Of a stretch of 54,865 nt of DNA, positions 44,834 to 54,865 are shown one piece after another. The stretch is from Ignavibacteriales bacterium (GTDB lineage Bacteria > Bacteroidota > Ignavibacteria > UBA10030 > UBA6906): positions 1 to 54,865 of the forward strand of contig JBBIRR010000029.1 in NCBI GenBank assembly GCA_037441705.1, in the 5' to 3' direction. Numbering within the stretch: the stretch's first letter is position 1; each line of letters begins with the position of its first letter. A program made the position numbers and the translations under genes. The notes beneath the pieces are model-generated. The model saw only the letters and a list, made by a program, of their open reading frames with translations. It was not told the DNA's origin and ran no database searches.

Positions 44834-45655
44834 ATGGCTGATGAGAAAGACATAAAGCAAGACGCAGACGAAAAAACACAACAGGCGCCGCAGAGAACTC
44901 TTCCGCCGATTTCATCGGCGAAGCCGGCCAGCGCCGCGCGGCCGCTGCCTCCCATCGCGTCGGCTAAGCCTGCAGGCGGAACCGCGCCAGCAGCTCCTGC
45001 GCGCCCTGCGCCCAAGCCTGTGCCCACCGCTACCGCAACACCTGCGGCTTCAGAACCTTCCGCGCCCCCTGTCGGCACTGTTCCCCGCGCAGCGGCCCCG
45101 ATTGCCAAACCCACACCCGAAGTCCGCAAACCCAAACAAGACCGACCGCCGGACGACGATCCCGGCATCTGGCGCATGAGCCGGAAGAATTTTCTGAACG
45201 TTGCCGGATGGTTCGGGTTTGTGAGCTTCCTCGTTACGGCAACGCTTGGGGCAATTCGCCTCATGGTTCCCCGCGTGTTGTACGAGCCGCCCTCGGCGTT
45301 CAAAGCCGGCTATCCGGAAGACTACATCATCGGCGAAGTGAACGAGAAGTATAAGGACGAGTATCGCGTGTGGATTGTTCGTGAAACTGACGGCTTCTAC
45401 GCGCTTTCCGCCATCTGCACGCATCTGGGATGCACGCCGCGCTGGCTGGCGTCGGAAAACAAGTTCAAGTGTCCCTGCCACGGCAGCGGTTACCACAAGG
45501 ATGGCATCAACTTCGAAGGGCCGACACCGCGACCGTTGGAGCGTTTGAAAATCACCCTGGCCGACGACGGACAAATCCTCGTCGATCGCAACGTCAAGTT
45601 CCTGTACGAAAAACAAGAGTGGTCCAAGCCTGACGCGTTCTTGAAGTACGGCTAA
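44834..45655 (+). CDS. Rieske 2Fe-2S subunit of a Rieske/cytochrome b complex
   Basis: CTHLGC and CPCHGSGY; Tat-like SRKNFL + TM helix; Pro/Ala-rich N-terminal extension. Confidence 0.95.
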
Positions 45656-45672
45656 TCATCTCGGAGACGTTT

Positions 45673-46464
45673 ATGCTCGGCATACTCGATCAACTCAAGT
45701 CGAAATGGGAAAAGACGGAAGTCTACAAATCCATATTCCGCCACGGCTATCAGGATACGCAACGCAACCGGGCTCTGCAGATTGTGGACAACGTGTTTCT
45801 GCATCTGCACCCCGTGAGGATTACACGCCACGCGACGAATATCGGCTATACGTGGGGAATGGGTGGCATCACGTTCCTGTTGTTCATCGTTCTTACGATC
45901 ACCGGCGTCATCCTGATGTTCTACTATCGGCCTGCTGCCGAGTACGCCTATGACGATATGAAGTATCTGATGAATGACGTGGCCTTCGGGCCGCTGATGC
46001 GCAACATGCACCGATGGGCGGCCCACGCCATGGTCATTACGGTGATGCTGCACATGTTCCGCGTTTTTCTTACGGGGTCGTACAAGCCGCCGCGACAGTT
46101 TAACTGGGTCATCGGCGTCATCCTCCTGACCCTCACCCTTCTGCTCAGTTTCACAGGGTACCTTCTGCCCTGGGATCAGCTCGCAATCTGGGCGGTGACG
46201 GTTGGGACGAACATGGCTCGCGCAACTCCTTTGCTGGGGCATGAGGGTCCGTTCGGGCCTGAGTTAGGGATGCGCATTGACAACGACGTTCGATTTGTCT
46301 TGTTGGGCGGAACGCAAGTGGGGCCTCCCACGCTGCTGCGCTTCTATGTGCTGCACTGCATCTTCTTTCCACTCGTGGCGGCGATTCTTATGGTCGTCCA
46401 CTTCTGGAGAATTCGCAAGGACGGCGGCATCTCAGGACCCGACGTCACGTCGAAAAAGATCTGA
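45673..46464 (+). CDS. Cytochrome b, b6-like N-terminal subunit
   Basis: H-X13-H (RNMHRW...LHMFR) and H-X14-H (VLHC...VHFW); [11 protein letters not shown]. Confidence 0.95.
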
Positions 46465-46492
46465 CCTTCTTCTCATGAACGCGTGAGACGTC

Positions 46493-47380
46493 ATGGAACA
46501 TCTTTTCAAAATCATCTCCAAACCGGACAACCTGCCGATTGTGCTGATGCTCGTGCTGACCATCTTCTACACTTGGTTCGCAATGAAGAAAGCGCTGCAC
46601 AACGACAGGCAAGGCATGCCCGAAGAAGCCAAGCAAGCGGACAAAGTGCAGGTCTGGCCGTTTCTCGTCAAGGTCGAGTTCCTCGGAGCGTTGGTCGTGA
46701 TGGTGATACTCACCTTCTGGTCGTTTCTGATTGATGCGCCACTGGAGGAGCCCGCCAATCCCTCGCTGACACCGAATCCCTCCAAGGCGCCGTGGTACTT
46801 TCTGGGCCTGCAGGAAATGTTAGTGTACTTCGATCCGTGGATTGCCGGCGTGCTGCTTCCAACCCTGATCATCCTCGGGCTGTGTGCAATCCCGTACATC
46901 GACATCAACCCCAAAGGCAATGGCTACTATACGTTCAAGGAACGTCCGTTCGCCATTCTGACATTTTGTTTTGGCTTCTTGTTGATGTGGGTGGCGTTGA
47001 TTGTGTTGGGCACATTCTTCCGCGGGCCGGGATGGAATCTGTTCTGGCCGTGGGAGTACTGGGATACGCACCGCGTGGTGGCATTGACGAACGTTGACTT
47101 CACGGAAAAATTCTTCGGCGTGCCGACACGATTGGTCGATGATTCGCTCAACCCGCTCGCGATGGCCATCGGTGGGGCGGCGGTTGTTCTCTGGTACGCC
47201 ATCCCGGTGGTGTACTATTTCTTGAAACGCAATACAGACCTGATCCGGAAGATGGGTCCCCTGCGCTACGGCATCACGGCCTTTCTTTTCATGACGATGA
47301 TGGCCGTCCCCGTGAAGGTGATCCTTCGCCTGACGCTGAATATCAAGTACATCGTCGTTACGCCGTTCTTTAATATCTAA
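46493..47380 (+). CDS. Subunit IV-like (cytochrome b C-terminal) protein with extra TM helices
   Basis: APLEEPANPSLTPNPSKAPWYFLGLQE, AIPYID; follows cytochrome b. Confidence 0.88.
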   Translation: MEHLFKIISKPDNLPIVLMLVLTIFYTWFAMKKALHNDRQGMPEEAKQADKVQVWPFLVKVEFLGALVVMVILTFWSFLIDAPLEEPANPSLTPNPSKAPWYFLGLQEMLVYFDPWIAGVLLPTLIILGLCAIPYIDINPKGNGYYTFKERPFAILTFCFGFLLMWVALIVLGTFFRGPGWNLFWPWEYWDTHRVVALTNVDFTEKFFGVPTRLVDDSLNPLAMAIGGAAVVLWYAIPVVYYFLKRNTDLIRKMGPLRYGITAFLFMTMMAVPVKVILRLTLNIKYIVVTPFFNI

Positions 47381-47391
47381 TTGTAAGGAGC

Positions 47392-50010
47392 GTGTTCTTG
47401 TTCAAGCAACGAGCACAAATCCCGATTGAACAACGAAACTACAGCACGTACTACGTCGTTCTCTCCGGCCTGCTGTTCCTGGGTACGATGTGGGCAGTGG
47501 TGGACGAGATTGCGACGCGTCGGCCGTGGAAACATCATCAGAAGGAATTCTACGCTCTCGCGGACTCGCTCCTCCAGCAGAGGATCGAACAAGCAGCGGC
47601 CGAGATTGATTCGTTCGCCCTCGATGAGGCTAAAGCTCATCTGAAAGCCGCTCAGGATTCCTTGCACGGCGATCGCTACAGAATGCTGATGAAGCAGTAC
47701 GAAGCGACGGCGGAGAAGTTGATTGAAGAAACGCGGGAGTATCAGTTTGCCAAGAGCCGCGGCGATGAAGCGTACTACTTCTACAAAAAGTCGCGCCTCG
47801 AAGGGAACGAAGACCTCGCGCAGAAGAGAAAGCTCGAAGAGAACGAAGCCCAGATGGCCCAGCACCAAAAAGTGATGGACGTGCTTCAGGCACAAAAAGA
47901 CTCTCTGCTTGCAATCCTCAATGAGTATCGGCAGAATGAACGCAAGGCGCGCAACGCAGTCAATGACCTGCTCAAGAACGTTGAGAAGTGGCAGACGCGG
48001 CGAGAGCGACTTCGTTCTGCTCCCATTGAGATTCGCCAGGTGATGATGCTCGACTACGACCGTAATCCCTTCAACGATCCGAAGGCGCGTGTGGATCGCT
48101 GCCAGACTTGCCATTTGGGATGGAACGAAGAGGTGATGGAGAACGCGCCGGAACCGTACAAGAAACATCCGCTTCCCGATCTGCTGGCAACACACAGCCC
48201 CGAGAAATTTGGATGCACGCCGTGCCATCGCGGGCAGGGCGCGGCGCTCACCGCGGGCATGGCACACGGCGAGGATGATCACTACTGGGAGAATCCGCTT
48301 CTGCGCGGCAAGGATGTGTGGGCCTCCTGCAACGAATGTCATGAGAACGAAAGCATCCTTGCCGGCGCGCCGGAGTTCACCAAAGCCAAGAGACTCATGA
48401 TCGAGTCCGGCTGTCACGGCTGCCACGAAATCAAAGGCTACACCGACCTTCCCAAAATCGGCCCGCAACTCACCGGCATCAGTTTCAAGACAACGCCCAC
48501 ATGGGTGTATCGGTGGGTGAAGAATCCGAAGGACTACAACCCGCATACGCGCATGCCGGACTTCAAGCTTTCTGATGAAGAGGCCGAAGCGGCGACGGCA
48601 TACCTGATGTCGGTATCGGAAAAGAGTGCGTTCGCGTTTGCTGCGTCGAAAGGTGCATACGCGGGCGGCAGCGCGCAGCGGGGCAAAGAGGTGTTCGAAA
48701 CGGTCGGATGCCAGGCGTGCCATGTCGTGGGAGCGATGACGAAGGTGCGTGAGGCGCGCGGCACCAGCTACGACATTGCGCCGGAATTGACGCGCGTCGG
48801 CAGCAAGGTCAATCCGGACTGGCTCTACGATTGGGTGCGCAACCCGCGCCACTTCAATCCGACCACGAAGATGCCGAACCTTCGTCTCACCGAGAGCGAA
48901 GCGAAGGACATCGTTGCGTACCTGATGACGCTCAGAGACGAGCGGGACCTGCCGTCTCGTGAATTGGACGTTGCGTCCGAGCAGATGATCAGGCGCGGCG
49001 AGAAAGTCATCCGCGAGTACGGATGCAATGGCTGCCATCTCATACCGGGCATGGAAAAAGAAGGACGCGTCTCCGTCTCGCTCTCCAACTTCGGGCGGAA
49101 GAAGGTGGATGAGATGGACTTCGGCGATACGCATGTGCCGCATACGTGGCATGATTGGGTGTACAACAAACTCAAGAATGCTCGCGTCTTCCAGACCGAT
49201 CGCATCGTTCAGAAGATGCCGGTGTTCTCCTTCACCGATGACGAAATCACCTCCTTGCGGATGTTCCTTCTTGCACAAACGAAGGATGAACCGGACAAGC
49301 GTTATGTCCGCACGTTCGATAAAAGGCAGCAGAACATCGAGGCAGGTCGGCGTGTTGCGATGAACTACAACTGTCAACAGTGCCACCAGCTCGAGAAAGG
49401 TGGGGCATACATCACTTCGATCATCGAAGAGACGGCTTTCCATCCCCCCATTATTACCGGAGAGGGCGCAAAGGTGCAGGAGCAATGGCTGTACGGCTTC
49501 CTCAAGCAGCCCTCGCCTGTCGGACGGAACTCCGTTCGCCCGTGGGTGCCGACACGCATGCCCACGTTTCACCTGACCGAAGACGAAATCAACAAACTGC
49601 AGAAGTACTTTTTGGGCTTGAGCGGCCAGGACCTTGAGCTTCGGGATTACACCGCCTTCCAGCCCGATCCGAAGCTCCTGCCGGTGGGGAAGCAAATCTT
49701 TGAAGATTTTCAGTGTTTGAAGTGTCATCCTGCGGGTACGACAACGGCGAAGCCGGGAGAGGTGTCAACGTCCGATCTTGCGCCGAACCTACAGCTCGCG
49801 CGCGGGCGCTTGAAGCCGGAGTGGATCGTTGTGTGGCTTGCCGATCCGGGCAAGATTCAGGAAGGGACGCGCATGCCGACCTTCTTCCCCGACGGCCAGT
49901 CGCCGCTGCCCGATGTGCTGGATGGCGATGCGCATAAACAAATGATGGCAATCCGCGACTACCTGTGGACGCTGGGCCAACCTGTGCGCACAACGGTTGC
50001 GGTCAGATAG
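47392..50010 (+). CDS. Membrane-anchored octaheme c-type cytochrome
   Basis: Eight CxxCH (CQTCH, CTPCH, CNECH, CHGCH, CQACH, CNGCH, CQQCH, CLKCH); N-terminal TM helix and coiled coil; AAGGAG RBS, GTG start. Confidence 0.92.
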   Translation: MFLFKQRAQIPIEQRNYSTYYVVLSGLLFLGTMWAVVDEIATRRPWKHHQKEFYALADSLLQQRIEQAAAEIDSFALDEAKAHLKAAQDSLHGDRYRMLMKQYEATAEKLIEETREYQFAKSRGDEAYYFYKKSRLEGNEDLAQKRKLEENEAQMAQHQKVMDVLQAQKDSLLAILNEYRQNERKARNAVNDLLKNVEKWQTRRERLRSAPIEIRQVMMLDYDRNPFNDPKARVDRCQTCHLGWNEEVMENAPEPYKKHPLPDLLATHSPEKFGCTPCHRGQGAALTAGMAHGEDDHYWENPLLRGKDVWASCNECHENESILAGAPEFTKAKRLMIESGCHGCHEIKGYTDLPKIGPQLTGISFKTTPTWVYRWVKNPKDYNPHTRMPDFKLSDEEAEAATAYLMSVSEKSAFAFAASKGAYAGGSAQRGKEVFETVGCQACHVVGAMTKVREARGTSYDIAPELTRVGSKVNPDWLYDWVRNPRHFNPTTKMPNLRLTESEAKDIVAYLMTLRDERDLPSRELDVASEQMIRRGEKVIREYGCNGCHLIPGMEKEGRVSVSLSNFGRKKVDEMDFGDTHVPHTWHDWVYNKLKNARVFQTDRIVQKMPVFSFTDDEITSLRMFLLAQTKDEPDKRYVRTFDKRQQNIEAGRRVAMNYNCQQCHQLEKGGAYITSIIEETAFHPPIITGEGAKVQEQWLYGFLKQPSPVGRNSVRPWVPTRMPTFHLTEDEINKLQKYFLGLSGQDLELRDYTAFQPDPKLLPVGKQIFEDFQCLKCHPAGTTTAKPGEVSTSDLAPNLQLARGRLKPEWIVVWLADPGKIQEGTRMPTFFPDGQSPLPDVLDGDAHKQMMAIRDYLWTLGQPVRTTVAVR

Positions 50011-50060
50011 ATTTCATCCAAATCAATCCATGTCACATTATTTTACCTGGAGATAGGAGA

Positions 50061-50750
50061 ATGAACAAAACGCTCGGTATCGTTCTGTCGCTGTTGGTTG
50101 CGGGTCAGGTGCTTGCCGGTGATGTCGTGGGCAAGGTTGTGTTCGAGGGGACGGCTCCCAAAGCCGCTGTGCTGAGGATGGATGCGGACAAAGTGTGCAA
50201 AGCCGCGCACAAGGAACCACAACGAAGCGAGGAAGTTGTGGTGAACGCCAACGGCACGCTCAAGAACGTTCTGGTCTATGTGAAGGACGGTCTGGGGAAT
50301 CGCAAGTTCGATCCGCCGGCAAAGAAGGTAACGTTCGATCAAATCGGCTGCATCTATGTCCCTCATGTTGTCGGCATTCAAACCGGGCAAGAGCTTGAGG
50401 TGATCAACAGCGATCCCACGCTCCATAACGTGCATTCACTGTCGAAAGAGAATCCGCAGTTCAACGTCGCTCAGCCGAAAAAAGGAATGAAGCTGACGAA
50501 GAAGTTTGAAAAGCCCGAGGTGTTCAAAGTCAAGTGCGAAGTCCACACGTGGATGGGAGCCTATATCGGCGTCTTCAACCATCCGTTCTACGCCGTTACA
50601 GGAGACGACGGAACATTTACGCTTCCCAAGCTTCCGGCGGGCGAATACACGATCGAGGCGTGGCATGAGAAGTACGGAACGCAGACCGGAAAAGTGAAGG
50701 TGGATGCCGCAGGGAAAGCAACGCTGGATTTCAAGTTTGCAGCGAAATAA
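50061..50750 (+). CDS. Periplasmic cupredoxin-like protein with carboxypeptidase-regulatory-like beta domain
   Basis: Signal peptide; NSDPTLHNVH...KCEVHTWM (H...CxxHxxM); VTGDDGTFTLPKLPAGEY. Confidence 0.8.
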   Translation: MNKTLGIVLSLLVAGQVLAGDVVGKVVFEGTAPKAAVLRMDADKVCKAAHKEPQRSEEVVVNANGTLKNVLVYVKDGLGNRKFDPPAKKVTFDQIGCIYVPHVVGIQTGQELEVINSDPTLHNVHSLSKENPQFNVAQPKKGMKLTKKFEKPEVFKVKCEVHTWMGAYIGVFNHPFYAVTGDDGTFTLPKLPAGEYTIEAWHEKYGTQTGKVKVDAAGKATLDFKFAAK

Positions 50751-50794: not shown

Positions 50795-52606
50795 TTGAGC
50801 GACAACACCTCCCACTCCTCATCACCGAAGCAGGTCGAAGGCGTTGGCGTTGGAACGCATGTTCATGTTGCGCACGAAGAGCACGTCCATGAACTCAGTT
50901 TCATCCGCAAGTACATTTTCTCCACCGACCACAAGGTGATCGGGATTCAGTATGGCATCACCGCGTTGCTGTTCCTGCTGTTCGGGTTCACGCTCATGAT
51001 GATCATGCGGTGGCAGCTTGCCTATCCCGGCGAACCCTTCCCGCTGAAATGGCTTGCTGCGTTGATCGGCAGTGAGAACATGCCTGACGGCATTATGCTG
51101 CCAGAGTTCTATAATCAACTCGGCGCGATGCATGGGACCATCATGGTTTTCCTCGGCGTTGTACCGCTGGCCGTCGGTGCCTTCGGCAACTACATTGTGC
51201 CGCTGCAGATCGGCGCGCCGGATATGGCGTTTCCCAAGCTCAACATGATGAGCTACTGGTTCTACTTCCTCGGCGGCGTTACGATGCTCGTCAGCTTTTT
51301 CCTGCCGGGCGGCGCAGCAAACTCCGGCTGGACGTCCTACGCACCGCTGGCCGTGATTGCTACGACGGGGCAAACGGCCTGGCTCATTGGGATGGTGTTT
51401 CTGATTACCTCGTCGCTGCTCGGCTCGGTCAATTTTATTACGACCATCATTCAACTCCGCGCCCACGGCATGACGTTCATGCGGCTGCCGTTTTTTGTGT
51501 GGGCGCAATTCGTGACCTCGTTTCTCCTGCTGCTGGCGTTTCCGCCGTTAGAGGCGGCGGGCATCATGCAGCTGATGGACCGGGTCGCGGGGACGAGCTT
51601 CTTCATGCCGAGCGGATTGGTGGTGAGCGGGCAGCCGTTGCCCTATACCGGCGGAGGCAGTCCGCTGCTGTGGCAGCATCTGTTCTGGTTCCTTGCCCAT
51701 CCCGAAGTGTACGTGCTGATTCTACCGGCGATGGGGATTGTGGCCGAGATTATCGCCAACAACACGCGCAAGCCTCTGTGGGGATACAAGTCGTTGGTGT
51801 ACGCTGCCGTGTTTCTTGGCTTCATGTCGTTTGTCGTGTGGGCGCATCACATGTTCATGACGGGGATGGGAACGGTGATCAGCTCGTTCTTCCAGACCAC
51901 CACGATGATCATCTCGATTCCCTCCATCATCATTCTCACGGCATTCTTCCTTTCCCTCTGGGGCGCTTCGATTCGCTTCACCACGCCGATGCTGTTTGCG
52001 CTCGCGTTTCTGCCCATGTTCGGCATCGGTGGATTGACGGGGCTGCCGTTGGGCCTTGCTCCGCCGGACATTCATCTTCATGACACATACTACGTCATCG
52101 GACATTTTCACTACGTCGTTGCTCCGGGCACGCTGATGGCACTCTTTGCCGGCATCTATTACTGGTACCCGAAAGTGACGGGAAGGAAGATGAGCGACCT
52201 GCTCGGCAAGATGCACTTCTGGGGTTCGTTCGTCTTTCTCAACGGTGTGTTCATGCCGATGTTCATTCAGGGACTGGCAGGCGTCTCACGTCGCCTGTAC
52301 GATGGAGGCGCGCAGTACGCGCATGCGCAAGGCGTTCTGCAGTGGAACGAGTTCATGTCCGTTTCGGCCTGGTTGTTAGGGCTGGCACAGATTCCGTTTA
52401 TCATCAATTTCTTCTGGAGTATGAAGAAAGGAAAGAAGGTGGAAGAAAACGTGTGGCAAGCAACCACGCTGGAGTGGGCGGCAACCACCTCGCCGCCGCT
52501 GGCGCACGGCAACTTTGCTCGCATCCCTGAAGTTCACCGCGGCCCGTACGAATACAGCGTGCCGGGTGCGCCGACCGACTATCTGCCGCAAAACGAAAGG
52601 GCTTAG
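50795..52606 (+). CDS. ctaD: Heme-copper oxygen reductase subunit I (A1-type)
   Basis: STDHK, AMHGTIM, AHPEVY, WAHHM, HDTYYVIGHFHY, SRR. Confidence 0.96.
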   Translation: MSDNTSHSSSPKQVEGVGVGTHVHVAHEEHVHELSFIRKYIFSTDHKVIGIQYGITALLFLLFGFTLMMIMRWQLAYPGEPFPLKWLAALIGSENMPDGIMLPEFYNQLGAMHGTIMVFLGVVPLAVGAFGNYIVPLQIGAPDMAFPKLNMMSYWFYFLGGVTMLVSFFLPGGAANSGWTSYAPLAVIATTGQTAWLIGMVFLITSSLLGSVNFITTIIQLRAHGMTFMRLPFFVWAQFVTSFLLLLAFPPLEAAGIMQLMDRVAGTSFFMPSGLVVSGQPLPYTGGGSPLLWQHLFWFLAHPEVYVLILPAMGIVAEIIANNTRKPLWGYKSLVYAAVFLGFMSFVVWAHHMFMTGMGTVISSFFQTTTMIISIPSIIILTAFFLSLWGASIRFTTPMLFALAFLPMFGIGGLTGLPLGLAPPDIHLHDTYYVIGHFHYVVAPGTLMALFAGIYYWYPKVTGRKMSDLLGKMHFWGSFVFLNGVFMPMFIQGLAGVSRRLYDGGAQYAHAQGVLQWNEFMSVSAWLLGLAQIPFIINFFWSMKKGKKVEENVWQATTLEWAATTSPPLAHGNFARIPEVHRGPYEYSVPGAPTDYLPQNERA

Positions 52607-52608
52607 CA

Positions 52609-53199
52609 ATGAACATTCCGTACACCGCCACCGCCCGTCCCGATACCGGCTTGTACAACGCCAAGCTTGGTATCTGGCTCTTCCTTGCGTCGGAAGTGAT
52701 GCTGTTCGGCGCGTTGTTCTCGTCCTATGTTCTGCTGCGGGTCGGTGCGCCTTCGTGGCCGCACGGCTATGAGATGATGAACATCCCGTTGGGAACTGCC
52801 AACACCATCATCCTCATCGGCTCCAGCGTCACGATGGTGATGTCATGGGCATCGCTGATGATGAAGCAGTTCAGCAAGTACAAGCTCTACATGGGATTGA
52901 CGATCCTTCTTGCCGTCCTGTTTTTGGTGAACAAGTACTTTGAATACTCGGCAGAGTTTCACCACGGACGCTTCCCGAGCACAAGTACATACTTCGCAAT
53001 CTACTACACGCTGACGGGCTTGCATGGCCTGCACATTCTCGGCGGCATTATCGTGAACTCGTATCTGTGGGGGCCCGGCGCGAAGATGTGGAAAACGGAC
53101 CCGCAGCGTTTCACCAATCGCGTGGAAGTGGCCGGATTGTACTGGCACTTCGTGGACCTCGTGTGGATTTTCCTCTTCCCGACGTTATATCTTTTGTAG
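52609..53199 (+). CDS. ctaE: Cytochrome c oxidase subunit III
   Basis: GIWLFLASEVMLF, LTGLHGLH, GLYWHFVDLVW. Confidence 0.95.
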   Translation: MNIPYTATARPDTGLYNAKLGIWLFLASEVMLFGALFSSYVLLRVGAPSWPHGYEMMNIPLGTANTIILIGSSVTMVMSWASLMMKQFSKYKLYMGLTILLAVLFLVNKYFEYSAEFHHGRFPSTSTYFAIYYTLTGLHGLHILGGIIVNSYLWGPGAKMWKTDPQRFTNRVEVAGLYWHFVDLVWIFLFPTLYLL

Positions 53200-53209
53200 G
53201 AGACGCACC

Positions 53210-53512
53210 ATGGATTCGGCACACGTAGAAGAAGTAAAGAAAAGCGTCAGAACGTACATCATCGTCTTCGTGGCACTGATGGCGCTGACCGTCATTACCG
53301 TCGCCATCTCGACGCTGCATTTGAACGTTGCAGCAGCGGTGACGGTGGCGTTGATCGTCGCGGCGATCAAAGGCTCGCTCGTCGCGGGCTTCTTCATGCA
53401 TCTGATTTCGGAGCGGAAGCTCATCTACGCGACGCTCATTCTCACGGCAGTCTTTTTCATCTTCCTGATGTTCCTGCCGGTTTCAACATATCTCGACAGC
53501 GTGGTGAAATAA
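53210..53512 (+). CDS. Cytochrome c oxidase subunit IV (caa3-type family)
   Basis: YIIVFVALMALT...IKGSLVAGFFMHL, three TM helices. Confidence 0.9.
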   Translation: MDSAHVEEVKKSVRTYIIVFVALMALTVITVAISTLHLNVAAAVTVALIVAAIKGSLVAGFFMHLISERKLIYATLILTAVFFIFLMFLPVSTYLDSVVK

Positions 53513-53513
53513 C

Positions 53514-53735
53514 GTGTCCCTCAAAGCAGTCCACATATTCTTCATCAGCCTCTCGATACTTCTGGCACTCGGTTTCGCCGGATGGGAACTTCAACGGTAT
53601 GCCGAATCGGGCGAGTCGCTTGAACTGATTGCCGGTATACTTTCGTTCGGCGTGGCCATCGGTCTCGTCGCGTACGGGATGTATTTCTTGAAGAAAGTGA
53701 AGCGTGCGAGTTTCAGTCAAGGTAAGGAGGGTTGA
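53514..53735 (+). CDS. Small two-TM membrane protein in cox operon
   Basis: MSLKAVHIFFI...; tightly packed in the operon; two hydrophobic helices. Confidence 0.7.
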   Translation: MSLKAVHIFFISLSILLALGFAGWELQRYAESGESLELIAGILSFGVAIGLVAYGMYFLKKVKRASFSQGKEG

Positions 53736-53736
53736 T

Positions 53737-53982
53737 ATGAAGCGCTTGTATTGTATCCTGCTTGCTGCATGTGCAGCGGCATTCCTTGCTCGGGCGGACG
53801 TGTATGCCTGCCCGAGTTGTTTCGGTGCACCGGATTCGCCGCAGACGGAAGGAATCAAATGGGCGATCCTCAGTCTGTTGGGCATTACGGGCACCGTGTT
53901 GGTCGGCGTGGGGGCGTTTGTTTTGTATTTGCGAAAGAAGACACTCGAATTCAACCGTCGGTTCGACGACCTGCTGAACTGA
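53737..53982 (+). CDS. Small exported CxxC protein with C-terminal TM helix
   Basis: AAGGAGG RBS; signal peptide ending VYA then CPSCFG; TM helix WAILSLLGITGTVLVGVGAFVLYL. Confidence 0.75.
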   Translation: MKRLYCILLAACAAAFLARADVYACPSCFGAPDSPQTEGIKWAILSLLGITGTVLVGVGAFVLYLRKKTLEFNRRFDDLLN

Positions 53983-54006: not shown

Positions 54007-54865
54007 ATGCACGATTTGTTAGGCCTTCCCATCGACGCATCGGCGCACGGGCAGTATATTGACCAGATCATCGTTATACTCCACTGGCTCATGTTGGTGT
54101 TGTTTGTGGGATGGGGATCGTTCTTTGTGTATTCTCTGATCCGCTTTCGAAAAAAGAGAAACCCTCAGGCGGATTACATCGGAGTGAAGAGCCATGCTTC
54201 GAGCTACATCGAAGTGGCGGTGGCACTGTTTGAGGGACTGCTCCTCGTCGGCTTCGCCATCCCCGTGTGGGCGAATGTCTGGACGAACTATCCGGCAGAG
54301 AAGGACGCCGTTGTTATCCACGTCGTTGCCGAGCAGTTTGCATGGAACATTCACTACCCCGGCAAAGATGGCATCTTCGGGCGTCGGGACATCAAGTTGG
54401 TCACGTCCGACAATCCCCTCGGTCTGGATCGTACCGATCCCGATGCGAAGGACGACATCACCACGATCAATCAGTTGCACATTCCCATCGGCAAACCGAT
54501 TCTCATCTATCTCACGAGCAAGGATGTGATTCACAGCTTTGCACTCCCATTGCTGCGCGTGAAGCAGGATGCAATACCGGGCGAATCCATTCCCGTTTCC
54601 TTTACGGCGACGATGACGACAGCCGAGATCCGCGAGAAAATGAAGCGCACGTTCCCGCTAGAGAAAGGAAAGATTCCGCCCCATCTGACGAGCATGATCG
54701 CTGCGGCCTCCTACACGGGCAGGGACGGTTCGACGCTTCTCACAAAAGGCGATCCGATCACCGAAGATGCAATCGCTCAACTGCTTGAGGCGGGCGTCAC
54801 TTCCATCGAAGCAACGCAGGACACGCCGACCGAAATTGCATGTGCCCAACTCTGCGGTCTCGGAC
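54007..54865 (+). CDS. ctaC: Cytochrome c oxidase subunit II (CuA), 3' end truncated
   Basis: Not in the ORF track; manual translation MHDLLGLPIDASAHG..., two TM helices, AEQFAWNIHYPG, SKDVIHSF, KQDAIPG, EIACAQLCGLG at the window edge. Confidence 0.95.
   Translation, partial: MHDLLGLPIDASAHGQYIDQIIVILHWLMLVLFVGWGSFFVYSLIRFRKKRNPQADYIGVKSHASSYIEVAVALFEGLLLVGFAIPVWANVWTNYPAEKDAVVIHVVAEQFAWNIHYPGKDGIFGRRDIKLVTSDNPLGLDRTDPDAKDDITTINQLHIPIGKPILIYLTSKDVIHSFALPLLRVKQDAIPGESIPVSFTATMTTAEIREKMKRTFPLEKGKIPPHLTSMIAAASYTGRDGSTLLTKGDPITEDAIAQLLEAGVTSIEATQDTPTEIACAQLCGLG

Follow-up and report, generated by a model that had tools for sequence, protein, structure and literature searches.

The oxidase genes and the K-channel site of subunit I

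The stretch of DNA analysed in this study, referred to as the window, comprises 54,865 nucleotides of an Ignavibacteriales bacterium (assembly GCA_037441705.1, contig JBBIRR010000029.1, positions 1 to 54,865). Near its end it encodes a haem-copper oxidase whose subunit I (CoxI) lacks the lysine of the K-channel and whose subunit II (CoxII) carries a glutamate, Glu76 (E76), buried in its second transmembrane (TM) helix, TM2. All features of the window described below lie on the forward strand.

The subunit I gene, coxI (50795..52606), is an open reading frame (ORF) for an A1-type haem-copper oxidase subunit I of 603 residues (Pfam COX1, 1.1e-134). phmmer matches the protein to subunit I of Rhodobacter sphaeroides (1m56_A, E 7.6e-117), with the Paracoccus denitrificans protein matching at ~1e-117. 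CoxI residues 324–426 pair without gaps with residues 306–408 of R. sphaeroides, covering helices VI to IX, and over this region the R. sphaeroides number is the CoxI number minus 18; positions such as K362 are given below in R. sphaeroides numbering. The helix VIII segment spans CoxI residues 370–382 (51902..51940), starting with Thr-Met and ending with Leu-Thr, and within it the K362 position is occupied by Ile380 (codon ATT, 51932..51934), as was claimed in an earlier reading of the DNA, the original prediction, and is borne out by the gap-free alignment. The ATT codon is two base changes away from any Lys codon. The channel's lower part is altered as well, with Ala317 (51743..51745) in place of the lower K-channel Ser at the S299 position and Ala383 (51941..51943) in place of the lower polar residue at the S365/N365 position. 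In the phmmer alignment to R. sphaeroides the T359 position corresponds to Ser377, and the H300 position to Glu318. The original prediction had singled out the replacement of this Thr by Ser; the Ser is indeed present, but it is not special, since it is common outside the lineage described below, occurring in 36 of 45 Lys-bearing relatives.

The remainder of the catalytic apparatus is kept. Glu304-Val-Tyr306 (51704..51712) form part of the HPEVY motif and provide E286 and the cross-link Tyr288, as expected of the A1-type assignment made originally. The haem and CuB ligands H113, H302, H351, H352, H437 and H439 align to H102, H284, H333, H334, H419 and H421, and the D-channel residues D143, N132, N150, N213, S206 and S207 correspond to D132, N121, N139, N207, S200 and S201. 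CoxI likewise has the Mg-site His/Asp and the Arg pair.

An AlphaFold2 model of CoxI, built on a 134-sequence alignment after an earlier 8-sequence version (pLDDT 56.3) was discarded, has a pLDDT of 92.7 and superposes on solved aa3 subunit I structures with target-normalised TM scores of 0.92–0.94; it has no extra long N-terminal helix ahead of H46-76. This superposition rules out a register shift that would bring another Lys into place, and in the model Ile380 fills the Lys site rather than being displaced from it.

The features used here to define an A-family, A1-type enzyme reportedly go back to Pereira and colleagues in 2001. CoxI has the six His ligands, the cross-link Tyr one turn past the first CuB His in helix VI, the HPEVY Glu and the D-channel, and the partner subunit contributes the CuA ligands H176, C279 and C283 within the window, as expected of a CuA-binding subunit II. 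What is missing is the K-channel with its helix VIII Lys, for which Ile380, Ala317 and Ala383 stand instead, leaving only Ser377 and Tyr306. Judged by sequence homology and its place in the tree, CoxI is a member of the A family but not a canonical two-channel A1 oxidase, and the enzyme is read as a working, O2-reducing A1-type haem-copper oxidase, probably of the aa3 kind. Membership of the B family (ba3), which is marked by a K-analogue channel lined with Thr, Ser and Tyr and by the absence of a D-channel, is contradicted by the presence of a D-channel in the window's enzyme and by ba3 chains matching at E 6e-5 or weaker, versus 1e-117 for aa3. The A1-type features are also set out in the available part of a later account (PMC11214002), in which the nitric oxide (NO) reductases of the haem-copper oxidase (HCO) type are described as lacking the cross-link Tyr and having altered active-site ligands. 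All such reductases (cNOR, qNOR, eNOR, sNOR, gNOR and nNOR) were ruled out for the window, as Tyr306 and the three CuB His are present. CoxI scores 578.4 bits against the NCBIfam equivalog TIGR02891 (CtaD_CoxA), below its cut-off of 670.75. The public names of close homologues are generic or misleading, such as 'cbb3-type cytochrome c oxidase subunit I'.

Loss of the lysine in a bacterial lineage

Among the best 120 of 8000 scored homologues, which are 79–99% identical to CoxI and come from Ignavibacteria or Bacteroidota where named, the K362 position is Ile in 115, Val in five and Lys in none, with HPEVY kept in all 120. A scan of one genome per species yielded 80 loci, of which 33 fall in a Lys-less group (58–81% identity), 45 are Lys-bearing, and two (L070 and L072) are Lys-less enzymes of other kinds. 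The 33 Lys-less loci together with the CoxI of the window (n = 34) are referred to here as the clade. All 34 lack the Lys (Ile 28, Leu 5, Val 1), whilst it is kept in 45/45 of the Lys-bearing relatives from genome loci and in 76/76 of those in a metagenome set. In a tree built after masking 13 K-channel columns, the 34 sequences form one clade with nothing else inside (FastTree support 0.993). The six His and the Tyr are present in 34/34 members, and the haem and CuB ligands, E286, Y288 and D-channel residues as a whole are conserved in 32–34 of the 34; the original description of an intact D-channel and active site holds.

The original prediction had named close homologues that keep the Lys as the sign of decay or sequence error; none was found, either among the best 120 of 8000 or among the 33 clade loci. 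Decay, a pseudogene or a sequencing error at the Lys codon is rejected as next to impossible, given the 603-residue open frame, the two-change codon, the 120/120 and 34/34 counts and the retained catalytic residues. The sequences indicate that the Lys-less trait is real and under selection.

The clade is taxonomically broad, carrying at least seven phylum labels (Acidobacteriota, Verrucomicrobiota, Planctomycetota, Neomarinimicrobiota, Elusimicrobia, Hydrogenedentota and Ignavibacteriota), which were taken from record titles, two of which resemble mislabelled bins. Its Acidobacteriota members belong to Vicinamibacteria and Thermoanaerobaculia, and several clade loci have records whose titles name soil or groundwater metagenome-assembled genomes (MAGs).

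A tree of 95 representatives contains further Lys-less groups elsewhere, as well as groups with Gln at the position, so that the Lys has been lost several times. When metagenomes were scanned with a second Lys-less clade (A5) as seed, 76 of the CoxI recovered were Lys-bearing, three were Lys-less (L112–L114) and one had Gln (L117). In two of the Lys-less enzymes, L113 and L114, Glu occupies the M353 position of subunit I, close to the top of helix VIII; the A5 lineage has Thr-Thr-Glu in its consensus around M353 and carries Phe at T359, which amounts to the same region rebuilt in another way.

Clade-specific changes in subunit I

Subunit I columns were compared between the clade (n = 34) and the Lys-bearing relatives (n = 45). 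The S299 position is Ser in 45/45 relatives versus Ala 22, Gly 5, Cys 3 and Ser 2 of 34 in the clade (counts as printed), and the N365 position is Asn in 44/45 versus Ala 21, Ser 8, Cys 4 and Thr 1. By these alignments all three lower-channel polar groups (S299, K362 and N365) are lost in the clade.

Hydroxyl groups have been gained elsewhere. Ser374 (51914..51916), at the A356 position, is Ser in 34/34 clade members versus Ala or Gly in 44/45 relatives, and Thr382 (51938..51940), at the F364 position, is Thr or Ser in 34/34 versus Phe in 41/45. On helix VII, Ser345 (51827..51829), at the G327 position, is Ser throughout the clade, whereas the relatives have Gly (29) or Ser (16). The clade also has Val at the G/A360 position (33/34), Asn at the F305 position (32/34), Pro at the S389 position (34/34), Leu, Met or Phe at the W366 position, and Ser at the A319 position in 22/34, where the CoxI of the window has Ala.

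Two further candidates were discarded. Glu318, at the H300 position, was considered as a specific compensating residue, but Glu or Asp occurs there in 29/45 of the Lys-bearing relatives; and a 12-residue insertion before the GGG motif is no clade marker, with 11–13 residues found there in 28/45 of the relatives. A separate carboxylate close to where helix V ends on the periplasmic side, Glu253 (51551–51553; R. sphaeroides A247 position), is present in 31/34 of the clade versus Thr, Leu, Phe or Ala in relatives.

A buried glutamate in subunit II

Subunit II is encoded by coxII (54007..54864), a CuA subunit without a cytochrome c domain (Pfam COX2; profile versus 1m56_B, 2.9e-34), whose reading frame runs past the contig end. 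Another contig of the same assembly (C90; L192, 1–1275) overlaps the last ~200 bases of the window (54658–54864), differing at a few bases while giving the same CoxII translation. The CuA site is completed there by the second His and the Met, and the contig then continues into a COX15/CtaA haem A synthase gene. As this contig repeats the end of CoxII and continues, the operon spans the contig break and CoxII is not truncated in the organism.

Two acidic residues of TM2 are of interest. Glu69 (codon GAA, 54211..54213) corresponds to Glu101(II), the Glu at the K-channel entrance in R. sphaeroides. E76 (codon GAG, 54232..54234) lies mid-helix, aligned to Pro108(II) and seven residues, or two helical turns, past the entrance Glu. 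It is present in 30/30 clade CoxII and in 0/43 of the Lys-bearing relatives, in which the column is Pro (24), Thr (18) or Val (1). A second, independent metagenome set (n = 57) likewise has no Glu in this column (Pro 52, Ala 3, Ser 1, Phe 1), and no Asp or Glu was found anywhere inside TM2 in these 57 CoxII of Lys-bearing enzymes. An independent replicate was sought in the A5-seeded metagenome scan, in which no locus has Glu at the E76 column.

The entrance Glu is present in 43/43 and 57/57 of the Lys-bearing enzymes, whereas in the clade the position is Glu in 23, Asp in two, Ala in two, Val in one and Gly in one of 29 loci, with E76 kept in all six that lack it. In these alignments the entrance Glu is dispensable within the clade and E76 never is. 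On the same helix face as E76, W104(II) is replaced by Val or Ile in 30/30 clade CoxII.

Other features set CoxII apart. In the CuA motif (residues 279–284; 54841–54858), Gln stands in for a Glu that in canonical enzymes is a ligand of the Mg/Mn site as well, with Gln in 29/30 clade CoxII versus Glu in 36/43 Lys-bearing relatives. His26 (54082–54084), in TM1 and toward the periplasm, is found in 28/30 of the clade versus Leu or Phe in relatives, and residues 25–26 lie within the modelled interface with subunit I. The cupredoxin domain has an insertion of ~70 residues (~202–275; 54610–54830) that follows the first CuA His and precedes the Cys pair. The window shares it with L026 (Ignavibacteriota) and L042 (Planctomycetota), and the other 13 clade CoxII in the alignment lack it.

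The modelled interface between the subunits

One source counts helix II of subunit II as one of those around the K-channel (PMC6115622). A molecular dynamics study, as far as its text was available, places E101 at ~-13 to -12 Å, S365 at ~-7 Å and K362 near -2 Å along the channel axis (PMC9687966). Seven helical residues rise by ~10.5 Å, which would place E76 roughly at the level of the Lys.

A model of the CoxI–CoxII complex reached an ipSAE of 0.89, versus 0.01 for the best control, passing a mark reached by 116/157 solved complexes and 2/215 mismatched pairs. At least 97% of contacts are common to the runs, with a partner pLDDT of 81 or more. The interface stripe on TM2 comprises residues 69, 72–73, 76–77, 79–80, 83–85 and 87–89, and that on helix VIII comprises residues 363–364, 367–368, 371, 374–375, 378–379, 382 and 385–386. 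Read as antiparallel, these stripes would set E76 beside residues 378–379, between Ser377 (T359) and Ile380 (K362), with Val72/Ala73 beside Thr382 and Leu79/80 beside Ser374. The helix VIII changes S356, V360 and T/S364 all lie on the stripe facing subunit II, and the TM2 changes (W104 to Val and P108 to Glu) lie on the stripe facing helix VIII, meaning that the clade-specific changes of both helices face each other.

Possible routes of proton transfer

These observations are brought together in the proposal that the K-side path has been remodelled at the interface between subunits I and II, with Glu76(II) as a titratable relay, a reading that we consider the most likely of those weighed although we put it at slightly less than an even chance. 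The canonical K-channel of subunit I has been dismantled in the lineage (K362 to Ile, Leu or Val, S299 to Ala or Gly, and S/N365 to Ala) with the D-channel and active site kept, and the protons of the reductive half would still enter on the K-channel side, passing by way of a remodelled route at the interface. Glu76(II), which replaces Pro108(II) and lies above the entrance Glu by two helical turns, would supply the ionisable relay in trans, and the hydroxyls gained on helix VIII (Ser374 and Thr382) may assist together with the retained Ser377 and Tyr306. E76 would lie within hydrogen-bonding range of the path and carry protons, and the enzyme would presumably pump them. In its more specific form, held more tentatively, the ionisable relay would have moved from the helix VIII Lys of subunit I to a Glu in TM2 of subunit II, with its charge inverted, forming an inter-subunit channel.

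The complete retention of the D-channel residues and of E286, set beside the replacement of S299, K362 and S/N365 by apolar residues, would also fit an enzyme in which the K-side route is closed and all chemical and pumped protons use the D-channel, E76(II) being unrelated to proton transfer; delivery through the D-channel had been one of the options named in the original prediction. A precedent may exist in the acidophilic iron oxidisers (rus-operon type, Acidithiobacillus and relatives), whose Lys-less oxidases are read in the available text of a preprint as possibly without a functional K-channel, with the D-channel kept (bioRxiv 10.1101/2020.03.01.968255). Like the window, these enzymes have a hydrophobic residue at the Lys position; they are, however, of the A2 type, and in the accessible tables their subunit II has Val, Trp or Ile at E78 instead of the entrance Glu, with subclades named '2TM' or 'rus operon' (PMC8239418). 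The window differs from them in having the entrance Glu, as do 23/29 clade loci, and a second Glu besides. Closure of the K-side is judged unlikely. In model A-type enzymes in which the Lys has been mutated, the oxidised form is reduced drastically more slowly even with an intact D-channel (PMC6115622), and such closure would leave unexplained both the invariant mid-membrane charge (30/30) and the hydroxyls that helix VIII has acquired on the stripe opposite.

Relation to known oxidases

The best sequence and fold matches of CoxI are the canonical aa3 enzymes of R. sphaeroides (1M56/2GSM) and P. denitrificans (1AR1/1QLE), with Foldseek identity of 37–39%. The window has in common with them the ligands, HPEVY, the D-channel, the Mg-site His/Asp, the Arg pair and a CuA subunit II lacking a haem c domain. 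It departs from them in subunit I (K362 to Ile, S299 to Ala, S365 to Ala, W366 to Leu, Met or Phe, F364 to Thr and A356 to Ser), in subunit II (P108 to Glu, W104 to Val, and Gln for Glu in the CuA motif) and in gene order, coxI-III-IV-two small ORFs-coxII behind a bc complex.

Lys-less A-family oxidases have already been catalogued from sequence (Degli Esposti et al., 2021; PMC8239418; preprint bioRxiv 10.1101/2020.03.01.968255), in agreement with the earlier expectation that such sequences exist elsewhere. The accessible part of this catalogue includes an A1 'KC channel' subclade from Elusimicrobia, Ca. Calescamantes and Methylacidiphilaceae, which, like the window, has HPEVY and no Lys at K354 of P. 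denitrificans (PMC8239418). This subclade is further marked by having no additional N-terminal TM helix and by protonable residues at the KC positions of the C family. The row given there for Elusimicrobia GWA2_38_7 (Y A I S C E G I S S) is identical to that of the window (Y A I S A E G L A S) at 7/10 positions, and each of the three residues that differ (Cys, Ile and Ser) is found at the same position elsewhere in the clade. The Lys-less clade of this analysis itself includes an Elusimicrobia MAG (L027). The clade may thus share membership of the KC subclade, a suggestion that comes from this pattern and not from a joint tree. In the portion of the catalogue at hand, which offers sequence cataloguing and no biochemistry, the KC subclade is listed without Ignavibacteria, Acidobacteriota, Planctomycetota or a bc-complex operon, and its subunit II table covers the entrance Glu (E78) but omits the buried one (PMC8239418).

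This kinship bears on a further explanation, in which protons would follow a Lys-free channel of hydroxyls and water within subunit I, KC-like and resembling the K-analogues of the B and C families, by way of Ser345, Ser374, Ser377 and Tyr306, with E76(II) at most a second entrance. Ser345 and Ser374 are each present in 34/34 clade members and Ser at the A319 position in 22/34, and the Elusimicrobia A1 COX1 of nearly the same pattern is classed as having a 'KC-channel' in the accessible text (PMC8239418). The B-family ba3 oxidase of Thermus thermophilus may offer a functional analogy, as the rows available for this family have Thr at the Lys position and an entrance Glu in subunit II, so that Lys-free K-type channels do exist (PMC8239418). 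The window matches ba3 only marginally in sequence (E ~1e-4), however, and has Ile, not the Thr or Ser of the B family, at the Lys position; the B family moreover lacks the D-channel, according to the part of the source at hand (PMC11214002), which is intact in the window. The four KC columns, mapped in this analysis by residue spacing to G312, M316, A319 and G327, read Gly, Leu, Ala and Ser in the window, so that one of the four is hydroxylated (versus two in the Elusimicrobia row), the A319 position being Ala. With S299 and S365 lost, no polar residue within subunit I bridges the N-side surface to Ser377. A route confined to subunit I is accordingly considered improbable.

Turning back to the inter-subunit relay, a buried subunit II Glu was not found in the literature on Lys-less or K-channel-less oxidases, for which the Degli Esposti preprint and paper were the only works retrieved, a search whose scope excluded the Degli Esposti 2020 BBA review and the preprint supplements, either of which could bear on the claim. 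What is already known, then, is the Lys-less state; what is added here is the E76 pattern in subunit II and its placement in the modelled interface.

Operon and genome context

Downstream of coxI lie a short-form coxIII of 196 residues (52609..53199; Pfam COX3, 1e-22), a prokaryotic coxIV (53210..53512; Pfam COX4_pro, 3.1e-11) and two small membrane ORFs of 73 and 92 residues (53514–53735 and 53704–53982), followed by coxII. Neither small ORF has a match in Pfam or NCBIfam. By tblastn they have matches in 17 and 20 of the 80 loci, all of them clade loci. The 73-residue ORF has two predicted TM helices, with a His at the seventh position in 17/18 aligned rows, and the 92-residue ORF combines a signal-like N-terminus with a C-terminal TM helix and contains a Cys-x-x-Cys-Phe-Gly motif. 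Possible roles for the two are those of additional subunits or of assembly factors.

The restriction of these ORFs to clade loci, together with the conserved His of the 73-residue protein, leaves some room for a structural role of E76(II), in which it would pair with this His, with lipid or with a metal in a slow, poorly coupled, O2-scavenging oxidase. Such a subsidiary function would suit a genome with other terminal oxidases. The genome of the window (100% complete) has a second oxidase operon (L001, contig C70, 447–3673) whose CoxII includes a cytochrome c domain and whose A2-type CoxI (YS-HPAVY) keeps the canonical Lys (caa3), and it has a cytochrome bd as well (contig C26). A structural role is nonetheless regarded as very unlikely. 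The 73-residue ORF was found in 17 loci, versus E76 in 30/30 CoxII, and E76 lies on the stripe modelled against subunit I rather than on the lipid-facing side. Furthermore, among 30 relatives the Lys-less type is the only COX1 match (PF00115) in four genomes (G013, G020, G023 and G028), and in one of these, G023 (100% complete), there is no cytochrome bd match either, leaving the Lys-less type as the only recognisable terminal oxidase, although completeness is no proof of absence. With no other terminal oxidase found in this genome, the enzyme must be able to serve as one. An altered substrate, which had been raised as a possibility in the original prediction, is also unlikely, given the retained His-Tyr motif and O2-reduction ligands and this occurrence as the sole terminal oxidase found. 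The haem A synthase gene after coxII is further support for a functional enzyme.

Upstream of coxI (44834..50750) lie genes for a Rieske protein, a split cytochrome b (b6-like and subunit IV-like), an 872-residue multihaem cytochrome c and a 261-residue ORF, the first three assigned by Pfam, so that the gene order is a bc complex followed by coxI-III-IV-two small ORFs-coxII. The 261-residue ORF has only CarboxypepD_reg-like domains in Pfam, toward its tail, and a sub-threshold match to the NCBIfam pseudoazurin model (18.4 bits, cut-off 109.85); it may be a cupredoxin, going by the spacing of Cys, His and Met copper ligands as judged by eye. Together with the oxidase, the upstream bc-type genes would form a quinol-to-oxygen branch.

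Weighing the proposed inter-subunit relay

Several points count against a proton relay through Glu76(II). E76 and the Lys loss represent a single evolutionary event in one clade and are not statistically independent, and five other Lys-less CoxI (L070, L072, L112, L113 and L114) have no Glu at the E76 column, so that E76 is not a general solution to the loss. A carboxylate is not a like-for-like substitute for Lys, its charge being opposite, and the Lys position holds a bulky Ile rather than being opened up. In the complex model the explicit contact pairs all involve TM1 or the periplasmic domain, none naming the partner of E76, and residues 377 and 380 are not in the interface list, which makes their contact uncertain rather than absent. 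CoxI and CoxII are moreover a textbook pair with many solved relatives, and the pass of the model may stem from likeness to these and not convey the geometry of this copy. The conserved transmembrane His of the 73-residue protein could be the real partner of E76. The lineage is also one known from sequences and models, not from biochemistry.

Set against these points, the original prediction had taken a Lys or an equivalent group in the same spatial position as grounds for its own refutation; the structure model brings no other Lys there, but E76(II) may in part be such an equivalent. The alternative path that it had proposed in general terms has likewise gained a concrete candidate, the invariant buried Glu in TM2 of subunit II at the helix VIII interface. 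If E76 stands in for the Lys, the enzyme is remodelled rather than channel-less.

Implications

For annotation it is relevant that the enzymes of this lineage score under the CtaD equivalog cut-off and that their public names are generic or misleading. The increment over the already catalogued Lys-less state is modest. The invariant subunit II Glu constitutes a specific and cheaply testable hypothesis. The K-channel Lys is treated as essential for active-site reduction in A-type oxidases and anchors much of the debate on the gating of chemical protons, and a large natural lineage without it provides a ready-made test of which channel features are truly required. If the relay through Glu76(II) is true, this natural experiment would show the K-path to depend on a titratable group at a certain depth, which need not be a lysine and need not reside in subunit I.

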